Positions 1 to 40,119 of a stretch of DNA of 64,000 nt are shown here, piece by piece. Under the pieces are notes generated by a model. It saw only the letters and a list, made by a program, of their open reading frames with translations. It had not been told where the DNA came from and did not search any database. Both the position numbers and the translations under genes were made by a program. Numbering within the stretch: position 1 is the stretch's first letter; every line of letters starts with the position of its first letter. The DNA comes from Plasmodiophora brassicae (taxonomy: Eukaryota), in the NCBI GenBank assembly GCA_036867785.1, contig CP145409.1, positions 1 through 64,000 on the forward strand. The letters are read 5' to 3'.

Positions 1-256
1 AACCTAAAACCCTAAAACCCTAAAACCCTAAAACCCTAAAACCCTAAAACCCTAAAACCCTAAAACCCTAAAACCCTAAAACCCTAAAACCCTAAAACCC
101 TAAAACCCTAAAACCCTAAAACCCTAAACCCTAAAACCCTAAAAACCCTAAAACCCTAAAAACCCTAAAAACCCTAAAAAACCCCTAAAACCCTAAAAAA
201 CCCTAAAAAACCCTAAAAAACCCTAAAGCCCCTATAAAACCCTAAAAAACCCCTAA
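1..256 (+). repeat. Telomeric repeat tract (CCCTAAAA)n = TTTTAGGG on the other strand
   Basis: Perfect 8-mer repeats to about 120, then variants with variable A/C run lengths up to 256, at the very start of the window. Confidence 0.98.
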
Positions 257-3200
257 GTACCGCGTTCTCGTCGTTGGCGACTTCAACACGCGGCTCGGCT
301 ACTTCACCGGGGACCACGACCAGCACCCGCAGGAACGACGAGACGACTTCTTCGAATTTATCGGCAAGTTCGACCTCACCCTGCTGAACGTGTTCCACAA
401 GAGGAACCCGGACAGGTGGACGTGGCGCTCCGACCAAGGCAAGAGCATCGTCGACTACGCCATGGTATCTAGATGCCACTACGCGCGCCTGGAGATCGTC
501 GCAACACCGGTGGAGAAGCCCGGGCACCAGATGTTGATCGTGACGACGGACGGCGCGGCGCCGGTTCGCGAAGACACCAGCCGCTGGAGCTGGAACAGAA
601 AGGCGTTCCAATCGGAGCCGAAATCAATGGTGATTCGTCATTTGCTGGAACCATGTATTGACGATTTGTATAGGATGTGGAAAGATATCCAGAAGGAGAT
701 GGACGAGAATTACGACGCGCCGGAATCGCAACTCATCGGGCTGCTCGACGAGGCGTTCGAACTGACCTGCGAGGCGCTGCGCCACGATATGATCGACATC
801 GCATGCTGGCCGCCTCACCGGTCGAAACGACACGAGCGCGCCGTGCCGATCATCAACTGGGACGACATGGAGGACTGCACGAACCCGTTCATGCTGACCC
901 GAACCAGAAGGTACCTGATGGCATCGGCGCAAGCGATGAACAACGGGATCGAACAGCAAGCCCCATCGGACGAGGAGCACGTCTCGCACTATCAGCAGCT
1001 GTACGCAGCACCGGAGGGCCACGAACCGCCTCGATCGCGACGCGTTGCCAGGAAACGAGACGATGTCGACAAAGCTGAGCTCAAGTACTTCAACGCGGCG
1101 TGCGTGGAGGGTCGCATCCGTCGGGCGCGATGGATGAAAGCGATGGGCCCGGACAACATGTGCGCTGATCTGCTGAAGGCGCACCCTGAGGCATCTTCGA
1201 AGCTGCTGAGCGTCATCAGCGAGATCTGCTGGACGCACCAGGTCGCGCCGACGGTGTGGAACCGCGGCTACACCAGGCCGATACCGAAGAAGAGCGAAGA
1301 CCGGAGGCATCCGGGCAACTGGCGAGGACTGGCCATGTCCAGCCACATTCGAAAACTGCACGAAGTCGGCGTTCGAGAGCTGATGCGCGACAAGGGCCTC
1401 TACCAGGTGCACGAGCTGCAGATGGGATTCCAGCGCCGGATTGGCCCGATCGAAGCCGTCTGGGTCGCTGATGAGCTTCTGGAAACGTACGCCAGGAAGG
1501 GTGTACCGCTGATGGCGGCGCTGCTCGACGTCAGGAAGGCGTACGACAACGCGGATCGCGAGCTGATCTGGCGGGAGCTGGAGTCCCGAGGAGCTGAGGC
1601 GACCATCGTCTCCAACATGCAGTCGCTCTTCGACGTGTTCGCGGTCGTCCTGCTCGTCGATGGTCGTGCACAAGAACCGATACCAATGGCGATCGGTGTC
1701 GCTCAAGGCGTCGTCAATGCGCCCGACCTATTCAACCTGCTGGTCAACCCGCTGCACGAACGGCTCCGGGCGATTGCTGGCCCCGACTGCCCAGTACTGG
1801 TGAAGATTCGCATCCCCATTATCTCGTTTGCTGACGATCAGACGTTGTTCTGCCGCGCTGACCGCCCGGCGGTTATGCAGGCAATGCTCGACGAGTGCCA
1901 CAAGTACTCGATCGAATACCACTATAGGTACAATGTCAACAAGTGCGTCCTGAGCGTGCCGAAGCACCCGGCGCTGCCGCCGCTGCCGACCCTGACGCTG
2001 GGTGGTGAACCCATTGCTGATGGCGAGGATCGCGCCGTGAAGTTGCTGGGCGTCTGCATGAAGAACGGGCGGATCGATCACGCGGCACAACTCAGGACGA
2101 GGACGGCGAAGGCCAGGTCGACGCTATTCGCGCTGAGCCAATCGGGCTGCTTCAAGACGAAACACCTGAACGTGAGCAAGAAGCGCGTGGTGTTTATGAG
2201 CTTCGTGCGATCGCAGCTGGAGTACGGCCTCTGCATCGCCAACCACAGCAGCTCGACGCTGAAGGAGATCGACTCGTGGGTCATGCGAACGTGCGCCGAG
2301 TTCCTCGGCGGCCATCGCAACGGGTCGATCCTGATGATGCGCTACGCCGGCATTGTCCCGATGGCGATCCGGCAGGCACAGCTACGTGGCGGGTTCCTGC
2401 TCCACCTGAAGGAGAAGGCCGACGAGTACCCGAGGACCATGAGCGGCAAGATCGCCAAGGCCATGTTCGCGAACCCGGCATCGAGGCTGTCGACGATCGT
2501 GCAGAAGTGCCCGGTCTGGTCGCGGGTGCAGGCGCTGATGCGGCAGCAGGCCCGGGTGAGGGACCTGCGCGAGTGGAAGATCAGGCACGGCACCCGATTG
2601 GAGGAGGCGGACAAGAACGAGGGCGGACCCGGGGACGCGCTGGTCCAGGCGCTGCAGGAACGGGCGTGGCGGCCGTGGGCGCGTGCGAAACTGATGCGGG
2701 TCCAGAAGCAGGAGTGGAACAGACCGCACGCGACCGCGTTCCAAGCGACGGCGGACGCGTACCGGATCGCCAACTGGCTGACGAATCGCCTACCGGGCAT
2801 ACCTGTTCCATGTCAGAACTGCAACGGGGCGTACGAGACGAATCGATACCATTGTACGATTTGTGTCGGCGCCCAGCAGCGGCTGGAGCATGTGTATCGC
2901 CCGGAGGTGCATCTGAAGTGGTTGACTGATGCCGACAACGCGATCGACGCCTGCCTGCTCCAGCTGACACGGCCGTCGATCATCCAAGCGCCGGCGTATG
3001 ATGGGCGACCTAGGAAGCAAGCGTCAGAGGCGGCGTATCGACTCGACGAGCGAACCAGACCGGTGGCGACGGCGATCGCGACTGTCCTCAAGGACATCGA
3101 CGAGCTGTGCAGGCCGCGACAGGGTCGTGATGGCGGCGACGACAATGGCGGCGACAATGGCGACGACAATGGCGGCGATGATGGGGACGGCGGCGGCGAA

Positions 3201-3386
3201 GATGGACCTGTCGAGCTCCGCATCCAGGACGGCAACGGCGACGATGATGGCAGCAACGGCAACGGCGACGATGATGGCAGCAACGGCAACGGCGACGATC
3301 AGGGCAGCAACGGCAACGGCGGCGACCAGGGCAGCAACGGCAAGCGGTACGAGCGGCGCCCGCCGATCTGGATCCGGGTACCGTGA
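255..3386 (+). CDS. LINE ORF2-like polyprotein with the N-terminus missing: partial APE, reverse transcriptase, C-terminal zinc knuckle
   Basis: APE motifs GDFN, WTW and IVDY. RT motifs KAMGPD, WRGLAM, QMGF, LDVRKAYD, QGVVNAPDLF, FADD and KLLG. CxxC-x-H-x-C knuckle CQNCNGAYETNRYHCTIC. No stops or introns. Confidence 0.93.
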   Translation, partial: KYRVLVVGDFNTRLGYFTGDHDQHPQERRDDFFEFIGKFDLTLLNVFHKRNPDRWTWRSDQGKSIVDYAMVSRCHYARLEIVATPVEKPGHQMLIVTTDGAAPVREDTSRWSWNRKAFQSEPKSMVIRHLLEPCIDDLYRMWKDIQKEMDENYDAPESQLIGLLDEAFELTCEALRHDMIDIACWPPHRSKRHERAVPIINWDDMEDCTNPFMLTRTRRYLMASAQAMNNGIEQQAPSDEEHVSHYQQLYAAPEGHEPPRSRRVARKRDDVDKAELKYFNAACVEGRIRRARWMKAMGPDNMCADLLKAHPEASSKLLSVISEICWTHQVAPTVWNRGYTRPIPKKSEDRRHPGNWRGLAMSSHIRKLHEVGVRELMRDKGLYQVHELQMGFQRRIGPIEAVWVADELLETYARKGVPLMAALLDVRKAYDNADRELIWRELESRGAEATIVSNMQSLFDVFAVVLLVDGRAQEPIPMAIGVAQGVVNAPDLFNLLVNPLHERLRAIAGPDCPVLVKIRIPIISFADDQTLFCRADRPAVMQAMLDECHKYSIEYHYRYNVNKCVLSVPKHPALPPLPTLTLGGEPIADGEDRAVKLLGVCMKNGRIDHAAQLRTRTAKARSTLFALSQSGCFKTKHLNVSKKRVVFMSFVRSQLEYGLCIANHSSSTLKEIDSWVMRTCAEFLGGHRNGSILMMRYAGIVPMAIRQAQLRGGFLLHLKEKADEYPRTMSGKIAKAMFANPASRLSTIVQKCPVWSRVQALMRQQARVRDLREWKIRHGTRLEEADKNEGGPGDALVQALQERAWRPWARAKLMRVQKQEWNRPHATAFQATADAYRIANWLTNRLPGIPVPCQNCNGAYETNRYHCTICVGAQQRLEHVYRPEVHLKWLTDADNAIDACLLQLTRPSIIQAPAYDGRPRKQASEAAYRLDERTRPVATAIATVLKDIDELCRPRQGRDGGDDNGGDNGDDNGGDDGDGGGEDGPVELRIQDGNGDDDGSNGNGDDDGSNGNGDDQGSNGNGGDQGSNGKRYERRPPIWIRVP
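3231..3338 (+). repeat. Four copies of a 27-bp tandem repeat encoding GNGDDDGSN-like units in the LINE ORF tail
   Basis: ggcaacggcgacgatgatggcagcaac twice, followed by two variants. Confidence 0.9.
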
Positions 3387-3400
3387 CGATCGCTCATGCC

Positions 3401-3461
3401 CGGCCGGATTTTTCCCATCCGACCAGCGTCTGACGCCCGGATGGGTTTTTTCATCCGGCCG
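3401..3461 (+). other. Stem-loop in the LINE 3' UTR
   Basis: CGGCCGGAT(3401-3409) pairs with ATCCGGCCG(3453-3461); CCCATCCG(3414-3421) pairs with CGGATGGG(3438-3445); inner GCGT/ACGC; U-rich internal loop. Confidence 0.75.
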
Positions 3462-3743
3462 ACGAGGCCATCACCAGGCCTACCGCGACATGCTGGCGAC
3501 GACGACCATCGGCGCCGCCAGCATCGACACGCACCACCCGCACTGCGCAGTCCGTCACAGGCGGCCACTGCGTAGCGCTATTTCTATCATGTGACCCTTC
3601 ATCTACCTACTCAAGACGACACTGGCAATCGTATTATGCTCGGCATCGGTTGGAAAAGGGTGGTCTACGCCTAATACACACAAGACTAAAACCCTAAGAT
3701 CGCAAGACACGACTACCCGAGAGAAGCAGAAAACCGTAACGAC

Positions 3744-6700
3744 ATGCCTGCCGAAGACGAGCAACGGTCGATTGAGTCCACACCTTTCGATGTTGCACCG
3801 CTGATCGAGTTTGATGACTTCGCTCCGAATTCGAAGGGCGTGGTCAAGTCGCACACGACCGACCGATCGGGTGCGACTCTGACCGCCGTTGGCGACGCGA
3901 TGAACGACGAACACGACGGGGACGGTTGGTATCGACACCGGCAAACGCGATATTCACCTGCTTATTTTGAGTTAGGTGGTTCAAAATCGTCTCTGATGGA
4001 AATCGAAATATCGCTACCAGCTGACCCGACACATGCGCCGGCGCAACACGCCGACCGAATTGGGCCGCTCCCTTCTGGTGCATCCGTCGACACTTCAGCA
4101 GCACATCCAGAAGTCGCCACCGTCGCCGTCGCTGCGGGAGCTGAAGACTCGTGTCATGGTAGGTAATCTGGCTTAGGGTTGCTATCGCGTCCAATTACTT
4201 ACTAATGGGCCAAGCTGACCTACCCGCGTGCCCAGCTGACACACTGTACAACCGCTCTGCTTCTCCTGGCATCTCCTTGACGGCAATTTTAACCGGGGAC
4301 GGTGGTGCACCAACGCGTGTTCCTGACGCTGCTATCGAAGACGACCTCCCATATCCTTCGCCTGAGGAAGACCCGGTCGATTTGCCCGTTTCGTCAGATG
4401 ATGCCGATATGGATGATCTCCTGCAATCGACATTTGACCATCGTGCGTGGTTCGCCGGGCGCCGTCGTCTGACGACGTGTACCTCGAACCGGGCGCTTTC
4501 GGACAACATTCGCCTGACCCTGGTCGATGTCACCATGACGTACGGATATGCTCCTGATCCCGCCGTTTTCTCGCTGTTCGAATCCTGCGAAGACCTGTCC
4601 TGGGATTCGTTCCGCAACGTCTCTGGCTGGCTTCTGTCTTACTTGTGCTGGCACGACCACGTGCCACCACACCAAGGCATGATTGAACGCCATCGGCGAG
4701 AGGTCGTATCTTGCCTGCAGGCTTCACCGGCAGGCCTTCGTGACAAATTCGACCAATGGCTTCGGCAGACCACTGCGACACCATCGTCTGGTGCACAGAT
4801 GATGCGTCACTGTAGCCTGCTCTCTACATCATGCGGCTTGTGGCCGCTGGATTTGATGGTCACAGTGTGTTTGAGCACCGATCCTGTCATCGTCGACCTA
4901 TTCTTGGATTCCCCAGTGTCGGTCGACAACGTGGACGCCCTCTTCAACGAATACGGTGTCCCGTTCGGCTGCCTGTGGGACGTCGTCCACCCTCTGATCG
5001 ACAGACGGCGGTCCCACATCATCGCTTTGCGGTTTGGCACGTCAGACGTCGTTGCTGTAAGCCTTTGCGATTCCTTGTTCCTGTACGTTTCTGACTTCGT
5101 ATGTAGCGGTTAGGAAGGGGCGACGACTCGTTGCCGGTCAAACGAGTGGCAGCTTTGGCGGTACTGTCTACAATAGCGCTACCCCTGATGCACCTGCGGA
5201 ACAGCTCGCCGATGCTCTGGCTCGAAGTACTGCCGTCGTCAGCGGTACGTGTCAGTTGTGAAAGGGCGCCGGCCCCGATGATAATGGTCTGCGACGGACA
5301 TGGCCAGCCTAAGCAGGAGTGCACCGGGCACAAAGATCCAGTCGAACACGGGGACGAGGACGACCGCACAATAGAATACCTGGAGCGTATCAGGGATGCA
5401 CACGAAGCCGCTGAGCGTGACGAAGTCGGTGATGATTGCGAGGATCCGGTGGGAGACTCCGAGTGCGATGACCCTGACCCAGGCGACGCAATCGGGGACG
5501 ACGTCGAAACTGATTCTGACTCTTCGTATTCGATGGATGACGGCGACGTCCCTGACCCCAGCAATGTCGACGGAAGCGATGACGAACGCATCGACCCCTC
5601 CGTAGACCACCTCGTCCGCCAGTCGACGCCGCCCTGTGCTAGTGCACCAGCAATGGATCTGTCCACGTTTGAGGTCATACACCTCGACGAATTCGCCGGC
5701 GAACGCTTCTGGGATGTCTTCGGATCCCCCAGGAAAGAGGCCTTCTGCGGCCGGTTCCGCTTCGATCTGGCGGATGAGGCGCGTCGCGCCTCAGACGCTC
5801 ACGGGGGTCGCCCGCGATTGCGGCCGGTGTTTGACGTCGACTCTTTGCAAGCAATCACGACTTCGATCGGGACCTGGCTGCAGCACTTTCCTGTGCACGA
5901 AGCCAAATCGTTTGCCTTCCTGCACATGATGCAGAGGTACGGGAACTACCGTGCACGTCAGTCGGATACGGGAAGCTCGGTACACGATCTGCGTGTGCAG
6001 CGAGACGACGAGAAGGCGTCGCGGTCAGTGGCGCAGTTGCCGCGATTCCTGTTGGGTCAGGTTGACTGCCATCCCATGGCAAATGTCTCGATCTTCTTAA
6101 TCGCTGCCGCACCCCGTTGGACGCATCGTTCCCTCAAGCAGCACTGCTCCAGGGCGGTTTCCGCTGCGTTCAGTGCCTGCCAAGCAGATCTGCCGGACGA
6201 GATCAACGACTACCTTAACCAGTTTGGGGCCCACCGCCGCCCCGTGGTTATGCCACCTTCGTCCGCCCGCGCTGTCCTGGAGGCTCTTGAGGATGAGCTT
6301 GACGGCTCCATCATGGTGTTGATGCAAGCGCTAGGTGTGCGCTCGTTGATGAAAATGACGTGTGTCGCCGACGTTCTCGAGGTGCGCCGCTACTTGCGAA
6401 CGTTCTGGCCGTCAACGTTAATGGACTGCGCGCGCTTCGACATCGGGTCCAACGTGTCGGCCGAACCCTTCCCCGACAACACAGCCGTTGCCGTCTGCCG
6501 CGACTACTCAGCGCTGCGAGATCTGGACGTCGGCTGTGGCATCGCGCCACGCAAGAGCTCGTACTATCCGGTCGGGGAGGTCGCCGGGTTCGGTGGATGC
6601 AAGTCACGTTGCAGTTCCGTTATGGCATCCGCGCGCTCGTGCTACAACGCGACCGTGTCGCAGCGCACGCGGGATCGTGGGCGCGTTCTGGTGGACCCCG

Positions 6701-9141
6701 TCCGCTTTGCCCACATCGGTACCCTGAACGCGGCCGTCCGCGCTACGTTCGAGAAGGGCAAGGTCCGGAAGTCGATCGCTGGGTTGCCCGCCGCGCTTAG
6801 GAAGTACGGCCCGGTCAAGAAGGAAGACGTAAAGCGGGCGTTGAATCCGGTGAGGGACGCGATGCGGAAGCGTATCCGATTCTGTCGCCAGATGGCCGCC
6901 GAACGCGTTCCTGTCGTGCACCGCGTTGAGTACGTCGCTAACCTGACCATGCGCCATGCGTGCTTCAACAGCATGTGGCAGGAGGCCGATGGGTTCAACG
7001 ACGATGCCACGTTCCTGCTGCTGGACGCGGAAGCCGTCTGGGCACATCTCCGGCGGAAACTAGAGCAGTATGTCGTGTTCCCTCGCAAGATGTACCGCGC
7101 GATGTTTCGCCGGCTGGAGCGCGGTCGCCGGTCTCCTTTCGTGTCCAACATCGATCGGCGGTCGCTGAACGCGCTGCAGATCTTCGAAGACTGTTTCAAT
7201 GCGGTTTTTGACGGCTCGTCCATCAACCCAGGTCGGTTCTACCACCGGGCCACGCCGGACAGCAATGTCGGGCCGTGGCTGTCGAACGGGTCGCCTCTCG
7301 ACTACGTGTCTTCGTCTCTGCAGTTTGGCCGCTTCTTCGTCGACGACACGTACATGGATCCGCTTGCCCTGGTCATCAACAAGGGCGAGTTTATGAATTT
7401 CATTCAGAGCCTCGACTACGTCGACATGATGTCGACAGTCCTGCGGATCTCCGTCAGAGGAAACCGGCATGCGCTCCACTACCTGGTCCAGTCGTGGTTC
7501 CTGGTCATCTCATCAGGGCTGAGCTCAATGCTGACGCCGGACGCCATTGCTCTGAACCTTCTGCAGACTGAAGCTGCGTATACGTACGATCAGTTGGCGA
7601 AGAGGAAGATTTTGGCGCCCGGGGTATGGCATGCTCTGGATCGACCGGACCTGGACCAGGAGCACGATTACCTGTTCGCGGGTTTCATGCGGTCGCTGGA
7701 CGCCCTGTACCGCCTGGGCAGGCGTGGATCGACGCTCGATCCGTCGCTGTCGTCGCTGCCAACCGTTAGTTTTTCCAACTGGATCGCAACGAATTGGATG
7801 TCGCCGGGCGTCGAACGGTTGCCACACCGGGCCCTGTGGCGCGACGTGATGTCCATCATACCCGAATCACGATACGACGATTACAACGTGACGAAAGCGT
7901 TGGTGGAGCGCGTCAAGAGAACCAGGGACCGTCAGGGACGTGATGGCATCCACGTGACGCTGTTGCTCCGCTGGTCGGGACGCGTCATCCATCCGTTCGT
8001 CGCCCTGGTCGACCCGCCTCCTGACGAAATCACCGATGAGTATGTGTCCGATCTGATGGGGTCTGCGACCAAGACCGTCGCTCAGCGTCGAGCGATGCGT
8101 GCTCGCCCCGATGGACGCTGGGCGCCGTCGTCGCGTTTTCTGGCCGTATTGGCGCACGTCGTCATGATTGTCCCGCCATTGCATGATCGATCGGCTGTGG
8201 TGCGTCTGCCAGCGTCGTCTGACCCGATGACTCTGAGCACGTTGCCGCTGGCACCACGGTCAGTCACGCTGTTTGATGCGTGCAAGAGTTGGCGCGACGT
8301 ACCCCTCCCGTCGGCAAACCAGGGGAGCAAGAAGCGGCACTGGCTATGGGAGGCGCTGGCCCTCATCCAGGGCGTCCTGCACTCGTCGCCGGACGCGCGG
8401 GGCGCCTGCACCAAGATCGACTGGGGCTCGTTCCTGGCCGACCCGCACAACGGCCTGCTAGTCCAGGCAGCGGGCGTCGACGCGGTCGTGCATTTGTCCA
8501 AGGGCCACAGGACAATGTCGACGCAGGTGCACGCCGCTGTCAAGGGCGTCAAGGACAGGTGGCCGTCTCCCGTCGACCTGTCGACTTGGTCGACGGCGGA
8601 AAAAATCCTGATTCTCGTGTATCACGCACGCGCGCTGGGCCCCGGCGTGCTGACGTATGTCGGCGCCGGTCGAAACGACGCCGTTCGTGACCCCGCTGAG
8701 CATGTCCTCGTCGTCGACGACTTACTGGAGATGTTCGGCGCTGCACGCATCGATTGGCGCCCCTACAAGCACGCTCTCGCGCTGATCGGCGCTGTGGGGC
8801 GCACGCTCGTCGAGATCGGCCTGAGCTCGAGGCACGCACATGCCTATTTCGTCAACGCCTTCGAGCTGGTGATCCTGGACTCACGACCAAGGCCGATGGC
8901 AGAGGCGACGTCGTCGAGGTTTCGCGGCATCGTCGACGATATGGTGGGCGCGTACGTCGCCGCCATTCGCCAGCGCCGGGGGAACCGAGCCGACCAGGCT
9001 GACGAGGCCGTTGACGACGACGCTGCTGCCGACGGCGATGGACCTACGCGTCGAACGAGGAGCAGTCGACGCGCCGTTACCCTGCAGAGCCGCGCAGCAG
9101 TCAAACGCAGGCGAATCGTTCGTCGCTGGCTGCTTTGCTGA
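3744..9141 (+). CDS. Large orphan protein (~1760 aa), 3 exons: 3744-4158, 4215-5056, 5107-9141; possibly mobile-element encoded
   Basis: Introns 4159-4214 (GTAGGT..TACTAAT..AAG) and 5057-5106 (GTAAGC..CTGAC..TAG) join the 140-, 302- and 1336-aa ORFs in frame. The last exon is a 4-kb open frame; a further in-frame intron at 5245-5316 is possible. Confidence 0.7.
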
Positions 9142-39105: not shown

Positions 39106-40119
39106 TCAGTTGTACCCACCGTACGGCGGCGGGTGGTACGTTGCCGGGGGCGATGGGGTGTCCTCATCGCAGGGTGGTGGGGGTGGAGGCGTTGGCGTGT
39201 CGCAGGGCGGCGTTGGCGTGTGATGCGAAGTAGGGACAGGCGGTTTCTGGCTTGGCGGCAGGTATGTTGGTGGGGGAGGAGGAGGCGACGTCTTGGCCGG
39301 TGGGGGCGTGCTGTACGCTGGAGGAGAGGTCGGCGTCTGGGTGGTCGGTGCCGGCGTCGGCGCTTGGTAAGTGGGCGCGGGAGGCTTGCTGCTGGGCGGC
39401 AGGTACGTCGGAGGAGGCGGCGGCTTGGTGGTCGGTGCCGGCGTCGGCGCTTGGTAAGTGGGCGCGGGAGGCTTGCTGCTGGGCGGCAGGTACGTCGGGG
39501 TAGGCGGTGCCTTGGTGGTTGGTGCCGGCGTCGGCGCTTGGTAAGTGGGCGCGGGAGGCTTGTTGCTGGGCGGCAGGTACGTTGAAGGGGGAGGTGGCGG
39601 CGACGAGGTCGGCGGAGTGTACGTTGTGGGCGTAGGGGGAGGTGGTGGCGGCGAAATGGTCGGCGGACTGTACGTCGTGGGAGGTGGCGACGTATAATCA
39701 GGTGGGGTGGACGATGGTGGTAGGTAGGTGGGCGGTGGAGGCGGTGCGTACGTCTGCGGTGGCGGCGTGCCGGCCGAGTAACTGCTACCGTGATTGTTCT
39801 TGTTGGGCACGACGACGCCGAACACGACACCGAGCACGATGGCAAGCACAACCAGGAAGATACCACCACCGATCACAAGATGCTTGTTCCTTTTACACGC
39901 GGCAACGCACCTGCCAGCGAAGGTCGTTGGCGGTACCGGAGCAACAGCGGTCCCTGATTCGCAGGCAACGGGCGTGGACGCCGCATGATACGCATGTTCA
40001 GCCGGCAGGGCGCATTCGCGTCCACGTTCGATGTCGTCGCGGGTCCCCGATACGGTGCCAAGCGTGATGACGGCGATGATGACGACGGCAGCGATGCCGG
40101 CGCCCTTCAACATCATCAT
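39106..40119 (-). CDS. Extensin-like Pro/Tyr-rich membrane-anchored protein
   Basis: N-terminal hydrophobic segment, second TM (LVIGGGIFLVVLAIVLGVVFGVVV), SPPPP and PTY motifs. Confidence 0.8.
   Translation of the reverse strand: MMMLKGAGIAAVVIIAVITLGTVSGTRDDIERGRECALPAEHAYHAASTPVACESGTAVAPVPPTTFAGRCVAACKRNKHLVIGGGIFLVVLAIVLGVVFGVVVPNKNNHGSSYSAGTPPPQTYAPPPPPTYLPPSSTPPDYTSPPPTTYSPPTISPPPPPPTPTTYTPPTSSPPPPPSTYLPPSNKPPAPTYQAPTPAPTTKAPPTPTYLPPSSKPPAPTYQAPTPAPTTKPPPPPTYLPPSSKPPAPTYQAPTPAPTTQTPTSPPAYSTPPPAKTSPPPPPPTYLPPSQKPPVPTSHHTPTPPCDTPTPPPPPPCDEDTPSPPATYHPPPYGGYN
39341..39583 (-). repeat. About three copies of an 87-bp (29-aa) coding tandem repeat
   Basis: Unit starts at 39341, 39428 and 39515 (PTYLPPSSKPPAPTYQAPTPAPTTKPPPP). 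Confidence 0.9.

Follow-up and report, generated by a model that had tools for sequence, protein, structure and literature searches.

Few telomere-associated retrotransposons are known, and their interest lies in the way the upkeep of chromosome ends is divided between telomerase and retroelements. A 2023 survey, in the parts available, records them from insects, Giardia, Chlorella, Pyricularia, anole and rotifers and places telomere-located elements in four clades, CRE, L1-like, R1 as well as Jockey (PMC10088271). In TRAS1 and SART1, the 3' untranslated region (UTR) is described as required and stringently recognised (PMC7265360, PMC4700185), and target-like bases at the 3' end of SART1 RNA may, according to one proposal, pair with the telomere strand that has been nicked (PMC7265360). 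Here we describe a long interspersed nuclear element (LINE) at the start of contig CP145409.1 of the clubroot parasite Plasmodiophora brassicae (assembly GCA_036867785.1), within a stretch of 64,000 nt (positions 1 to 64,000, forward strand) that we refer to as the window. The window copy is a dead, 5'-truncated copy of a non-LTR retrotransposon family (one without long terminal repeats) with an apurinic/apyrimidinic endonuclease (APE)-type nuclease. We give a probability of roughly 0.55 to the reading that this APE-type LINE family ends in a short C-strand telomere repeat of its host and was likely primed from a telomeric end; a link of the family to chromosome ends is probable.

The window opens with the telomere repeat in print for P. 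brassicae, TTTTAGGG (PMC6823432, PMC11191646, in the parts available), so base 1 is the outer chromosome end and the strand read is the C-rich one. An 8-base tandem repeat detected by TRF at 3-247 (28.9 copies, 91% matches), inspection of the sequence and the published unit together define a terminal telomere tract of ~29 units of (CCCTAAAA)n at 1..254 (+). Its outer ~15 units are perfect CCCTAAAA, and its inner ~13 units (about 120-254) are irregular, with A-runs of 3-6 and C-runs of 3-4. The LINE follows at base 255. On the minus strand, the join can be read as element sequence, ...ACTT, that continues into AGGGG TTTTTT AGGG..., in register with T4AG3, the product expected if telomerase had acted on a non-telomeric end.

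The LINE copy spans 255..3697 (+), as delimited by Pfam matches, relatives and public contigs, and lacks ORF1, the 5' UTR and ~150 APE codons. What remains of the second open reading frame (ORF) lies at 255..3386 (+) and comprises 1043 codons without a stop (255-3383) followed by a stop codon at 3384-3386; its translation is identical at 652 of 654 residues to PBRA_009663, a P. brassicae hypothetical protein. Residues 3-72 (261..470, +) form the C-terminal third of an APE-type endonuclease domain, with the GDFN and IVDY motifs retained, although the Exo_endo_phos_2 match covers only profile positions 32-94 of 117 and, at E 1e-4, falls under the curated cut-off. The reverse transcriptase (RT) domain occupies residues 343-600 (1281..2054, +; RVT_1, E 1.8e-20), and the family profile matches L1 ORF2p (128.5 bits) and R2 (122.4 bits) in the PDB without separating L1 from R2; the 13 PDB matches (cut-off E <= 0.01) include no telomere-specific LINE nuclease structure. 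Towards the C-terminus, a CCHC motif of the form C-x2-C-x9-H-x3-C (2811..2864, +) has all four residues, C853, C856, H866 and C870, invariant in the four family sequences compared, and the ORF ends in low-complexity D/G/N-rich coding repeats with 12-, 24- and 27-nt periods (3130..3343, +; TRF and alignment) that the relatives do not have. The RT domain, an N-terminal APE domain that is complete in relatives, 5' truncation and a simple-repeat tail bear out membership among LINE-type elements, and self-comparison revealed no internal or terminal repeats. Seven of the 11 ORF differences across four public runs are synonymous and the frame is open over 1043 codons, so that, judged from its sequence, the ORF looks recently active.

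The 3' end of the element carries the telomere link. Downstream of the stop codon, a structured 3' UTR of 299 nt (3387..3685, +) has a minimum free energy of -115.9 kcal/mol (z -5.1), with none of 100 shuffles as stable, and ends in ...TAATACACACAAGA. It is followed directly by a telomere-repeat tail, the 12-mer CTAAAACCCTAA, at 3686..3697 (+), and there is no A-run or poly(A) at the LINE 3' end. A motif scan found the 12-mer 19 times in the 64-kb window, 18 times within 1-196 and only once outside the tract, at 3686-3697, and in none of 100 shuffles. No Rfam ribozyme family was found beside the tail at E <= 1 (window 1-5200 and the three relative loci introduced below). A count of the 12-mer positions places GATCGCAAG outside the element.

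Relatives of the ORF were found in environmental DNA. Three proteins from environmental assemblies (P0003, P0004 and P0005; 31-37% identity) align over its whole length and are longer by ~150 residues at the N-terminus, so that their APE domain is complete (Exo_endo_phos, E 8e-10 to 7e-15). The SDH motif of this domain reads TPH, ASH, PGH and TPY in four members, such that the D is lost in all four and the catalytic His position is Tyr in the lineage of P0003 and the L001 ORF2; as far as can be told from these residues, nuclease activity may be reduced. When 1.84 billion representatives were searched with a profile, this yielded about 16-20 full-length-type matches above ~390 bits, compared to a generic LINE plateau at 250-330 bits, which suggests some 16-20 clusters in the family, and all 10 representatives looked up were environmental proteins. 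A scan of viral contigs returned no further family relatives, and a scan of genome contigs returned only distant RT matches at 24-33% identity. As a separate observation, the contigs that hold LINE-like RT matches at L009:6001-7869 and L012:6001-6400, 0.73 Mb and 1.5 Mb long, bear the label of a Nitrospirales metagenome-assembled genome, an odd setting for such sequences.

A metagenome scan provided three family loci (L001, L002 and L003; 33-36% identical) that fall into two lineages, and a C-strand telomere-repeat tail was present just 3' of the ORF in all three. L001 and L002 belong to one lineage, with 99.6% identity over 2683 nt. In both, ...AAAACACAAGCA closes the 3' UTR and CCCTAAA-type repeats come next (L001, 37 nt; L002, 30-31 nt). 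The two tails differ by one unit, and the flanks beyond them also differ. An ACACAAG motif precedes the tail in these two loci and in the window element. L003 represents a separate lineage, 42% identical to P0004, and carries CCTAAAACCCTA ~145 nt past the stop codon. In contrast, a telomere-like 11-mer was found in none of five distant LINE loci (L004-L008) from the same metagenome scan. The tails of the window element and the relatives start in a common phase, (C)CTAAA, with a unit of 7 bases in one relative lineage and 8 in the other, and the 8-base unit of the P. brassicae tail is that of the host telomere. Since the repeat stands at the same place in all three relative loci while its unit length varies by lineage, the telomere link is a family trait; on these alignments, the tail is either brought along or always found at the element's end, and is no chance stub.

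The arrangement of L001 is that of a full-length family member with two ORFs. This locus closes on itself with a 99-nt overlap into a unit of 4214 nt whose order is tail, 20 nt, ORF1 (217 aa), ORF2 (1129 aa), UTR and tail, indicating that it was assembled from head-to-tail copies with only the tail between them. ORF1 has no Pfam match, and no CCHC knuckle was visible by eye. Merely 20 nt (L001:1131-1150) separate the tail from the ATG of the next copy's ORF1, and L001 transcription may depend on the 3' end of the upstream copy. The flank of L002 is unrelated to the element and holds an ORF (L002:2944-3207, +) ~270 nt past the tail with a fungal-type Zn2Cys6 match above the cut-off (E 1.9e-5, 25.1 bits), which hints at the kind of host that carries L002 and shows gene-bearing DNA directly behind the tail.

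We assessed the junctions of the element in P. brassicae using Logan contigs of four public runs (X1, X6, X10 and X16) from four studies, among the contigs listed. X1 and X10 are DNA-like runs, whereas X6 was taken as RNA because it skips two GT..AG segments in the flanking gene; in X16, cover ends at 3708 and nothing was concluded from the uncovered part. At the 5' end, contigs of X6 and X16 extend beyond 255 with non-telomeric sequence that, in frame, encodes more of the APE domain. Thus, longer copies exist, and the window copy is truncated at 254/255. The telomere-LINE join itself is bridged by no contig of X1 or X10 among the matches listed, and some contigs disagree with the window in A-run lengths at 195 and 232, as might be seen if the join were an assembly artefact; however, the best runs contain 0.92-0.93 of the sampled words from 150-3900, the irregular repeats at 232 are present in contigs of X1 and X10, with a word depth much lower than in the regular repeat at 195, and the join keeps the register of the telomere unit. 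We regard an artefact at this position as barely credible. One X1 contig shares the irregular repeats up to 247 (window ~217-247) and then, after CCCTAAG, carries 23 different letters. By eye, these bear a loose likeness to the LINE just 5' of 255 and may mark a second telomere-capped, diverged copy, the stretch being very short.

The 3' boundary is exact. Contigs of the LINE end at 3697 in X1 and at 3698 in X10 and then join one other sequence in each run, while in X1, X6 and X10 the flank to the right of 3697 also occurs attached to a third sequence, which is unrelated and does not occur in the window. Because the contigs branch at 3697/3698, the sequence common to the family stops exactly with the 12-mer. 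Two loose-end sequences taken from the contigs had no matches in the window with up to 3 mismatches allowed. Contigs of X6 and X16 stop earlier, at 3692, inside the 12-mer and five bases short of the DNA boundary, and the letters that follow 3692 in X6 are ones we take to be Illumina adapter. This stop hints weakly that the RNA has a defined end and lacks poly(A), although it could equally be the start of an antisense RNA. In the same run, a 2920-nt contig over 255-3258 lacks 2803-2849 (47 bases) and 3010-3060 (51 bases), both with CT..AC ends that correspond to GT..AG on the minus strand. This suggests that the LINE is crossed by a spliced antisense transcript; alternatively, the contig could represent a deletion variant of another copy.

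The 12-mer could in principle be the stub of an earlier telomere that had healed a break at 3698, with an unrelated, ordinary LINE later added or inserted there. Such a history would agree with flank homology that is cut exactly at 3697/3698 and with the X6 and X16 contigs that end inside the 12-mer, but it is hard to reconcile with the identical 12-mer that precedes three different flanks in P. brassicae contigs from two runs, or with relatives that carry the repeat at the same place. We consider a stub very improbable. Much of the original prediction, which had been made from the letters of this DNA by a model, is upheld by these data: the uninterrupted APE-RT-CCHC ORF on the C-rich strand (1043 codons with RVT_1, a partial APE and an invariant CCHC), the truncated, telomere-capped 5' end that faces the chromosome end (~29 units at 1-254, with longer copies in X6 and X16) and the 3' end in telomeric sequence without poly(A) (CTAAAACCCTAA at 3686-3697, no A-run) were all recovered. 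Of the signs that it had named as support, a shared 3' telomeric junction is seen in the same 12-mer before three flanks; 5' breaks lie at 255 and 922.

From this anatomy we infer priming from a telomeric end and an order of events. Element RNA ending in CUAAAACCCUAA would pair with a G-rich telomeric 3' end, with the primer being either a natural overhang or eroded chromosome end, as in nuclease-less Penelope-like elements (PMC8557442), or the site at which the element's own nuclease had nicked telomere repeats, as in TRAS/SART. Reverse transcription would start from this DNA end and place the 3' end of the new copy inward and its 5' end outward. The window copy would have been synthesised only as far as base 255, or cut back to it by later erosion, and telomerase would then have lengthened the outward end. 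The telomere cap now adjoins the element on its outer side, and on its inner side a subtelomeric gene begins 47 bases away. The polarity of the copy, the cut in homology at the tail, the L001 array and the FoTeR-like junctions fit priming from a G-rich telomeric 3' end, and flank homology cut exactly at the LINE tail is what one would expect if the element had been added to an end that was broken or eroded.

Several observations weigh against this scheme. The three 3' flanks in P. brassicae contigs are non-telomeric and contain no telomere arrays, and the P. brassicae tail is only 12 nt long. In X1 and X10, a loose end at position 922 reveals a second near-identical copy broken against non-telomeric sequence; word depth approximately doubles from 922 in both runs, a hint of a second copy that gives no copy number. 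The family has few copies in P. brassicae, with word depth suggesting about two near-identical ones. Because the APE catalytic motifs are mostly kept in relatives, the element could insert anywhere and have reached a terminal site by accident. If 3692 were the RNA 3' end, the last CCTAA would be untemplated and the simple annealing model would need amending. The contigs give junctions rather than chromosomal positions, and the match between tail and host unit is seen in P. brassicae.

The gene models and fragments in P. brassicae bear on copy number. Two named gene models match the LINE ORF, PBRA_009663 and PBRA_008893, the latter (P0013, on an 83.8-kb contig) being identical at 108 of 108 residues to ORF residues 294-401; a further match, a 51-residue ORF without a source, was taken as the window's own fragment. 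Self-comparison of the window also identified a decayed internal fragment of the family at 13293..13656 (+), 87.7% identical in nucleotides to 1123-1481, that is oriented like the LINE, contains an in-frame stop and lacks an adjacent telomere motif. The same internal piece (residues ~292-401), with shared limits, stands alone at 13293-13656 with 82% protein identity and recurs at 100% in PBRA_008893.

These observations can be read in another way, namely that a telomere-tailed LINE inserts through its APE at ordinary sites, is subtelomeric by chance or mild bias, and had a break at 255 that was healed by telomerase. The retained APE motifs, the three non-telomeric 3' flanks, the copy whose break at 922 abuts non-telomeric DNA, the fragment at 13.3 kb without a telomere motif and the gene-like DNA with a Zn2Cys6 match behind the L002 tail would all be accommodated. 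However, general insertion requires two independent events and the right orientation by chance, offers no reason for telomere-repeat tails in three divergent lineages with units of 7 or 8 bases, and leaves unexplained the L001 array, in which the tail alone lies between copies. We consider general insertion, the main alternative, less likely and prefer priming from a telomeric end. The original prediction of a telomere-targeting family stands in part: the tail in three of three relative loci versus none of five distant LINEs speaks for it, while the non-telomeric 3' flanks, the junction at 922 and the few copies do not. Its claim that the element was undescribed in this lineage agrees with a literature search that gave no telomeric retroelement for P. 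brassicae or in rhizarian genome papers, in the parts of these sources available, whose supplementary repeat tables may list the family as "LINE".

Other features of the window were also noted. Guided by X6, the ORFs 3744-4166, 4205-5113 and 5131-9141 (+) join in frame through GT..AG introns at 4159-4214 and 5057-5106 into a gene (3744-9141) of ~1763 aa that has no Pfam match and starts 47 nt past the LINE tail; a paralogue of this gene has a different, longer upstream part. The ORF at 19498-22056 (+; 852 aa) encodes a DEAH-box helicase core whose nearest structures are those of DHX9 and DHX36 and is an ordinary gene, this match ruling out a telomere-linked RecQ-type helicase. An 87-nt tandem repeat lies at 39326-39582 (2.9 copies, 94% matches, TRF).

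A family of this kind in Rhizaria with environmental relatives would widen the list of telomeric elements, and it would offer a natural test of whether the tail of an element and the telomere unit of its host vary together. The subtelomeres of P. brassicae are reported to be variable, according to the part of that report available (10.64898/2026.10.14.759018), and published telomere-to-telomere assemblies together with a 55-genome pangenome could reveal end remodelling in the clubroot parasite.

Among known elements, TRAS1 and SART1 (R1 clade, Bombyx mori) resemble the P. brassicae family in being APE-type and in having, at a telomerase-type telomere, an element with two ORFs (PMC4700185, PMC7265360). 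They differ in having poly(A), in lying with repeats on both sides in long arrays and in needing at least 3 repeats (PMC4700185, PMC7265360, in the parts available). Only full-length TRAS/SART copies are reported at telomeres in these accounts, whereas the P. brassicae copy is truncated and has 12 nt of repeat on its inward side. R1-clade traits are likewise lacking, in that there is no poly(A) and that the L001 ORF1 shows neither a Pfam match nor a visible CCHC knuckle.

MoTeRs are CRE-like elements with a restriction-like nuclease. The P. brassicae family differs from the MoTeR and FoTeR elements of Magnaporthe and Fusarium in its N-terminal APE nuclease and C-terminal CCHC motif. The junctions are nonetheless alike, since the 3' end of FoTeR is followed by 3-7 C-strand TAACCC units (PMC12857005). 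MoTeR and FoTeR also sit at the ends of chromosomes in a plant pathogen whose telomeres are functional, and their truncated copies are described as retaining the repeat on the intact side (PMC12857005, in the part available).

Athena and Coprina, which are endonuclease-deficient Penelope-like elements, share short reverse-complement telomere repeats at the 3' end, which are thought to pair the RNA with G-rich overhangs (PMC8557442). They are described as lacking an endonuclease domain, as having an RT closest to telomerase RT and as combining their repeats with hammerhead ribozymes (PMC8557442). In contrast, the P. brassicae family has an APE domain in relatives and an RVT_1 match, and no Rfam ribozyme was found within the scope given above. 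Gladyshev and Arkhipova reportedly described Athena/Coprina copies in 2007 that are 5'-truncated and telomere-capped.

In GilM/GilT of Giardia and in HeT-A/TART/TAHRE of Drosophila, the 5' end faces outward, TART has abundant spliced antisense RNA, and the tails are poly(A) or oligo(A). The P. brassicae LINE may likewise have a spliced antisense RNA. Zepp of Chlorella has a poly(A) tail and forms nested arrays. Like L001, GilM/GilT and HeT-A/TART/TAHRE form head-to-tail arrays at chromosome ends (PMC10088271). They differ in clade, GilM/GilT being CRE-like and the Drosophila elements Jockey, and Drosophila lacks telomerase (PMC10088271), whereas here a canonical tract caps the element. Zepp and Tx1-1_ACar of anole are alike in being telomere-repeat LINEs of telomerase-positive hosts, a likeness drawn from their listing in the survey (PMC10088271).

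The P. brassicae element thus joins the known class of telomere-associated non-LTR retrotransposons represented by TRAS/SART, MoTeR/FoTeR and GilM/GilT. We tentatively raise a broader possibility, to which we give less than even odds: that nuclease-bearing LINEs of Rhizaria and of uncultured soil eukaryotes swapped poly(A) for a telomere tail that tracks the host's unit of 7 or 8 bases, and prime on chromosome ends, in that way healing eroded or broken ones beside telomerase. If so, this would be a third independent invention of such a tail, after nuclease-less Penelope-like elements and the fungal MoTeR/FoTeR group, and the first mobile element shown in Rhizaria to shape chromosome ends.

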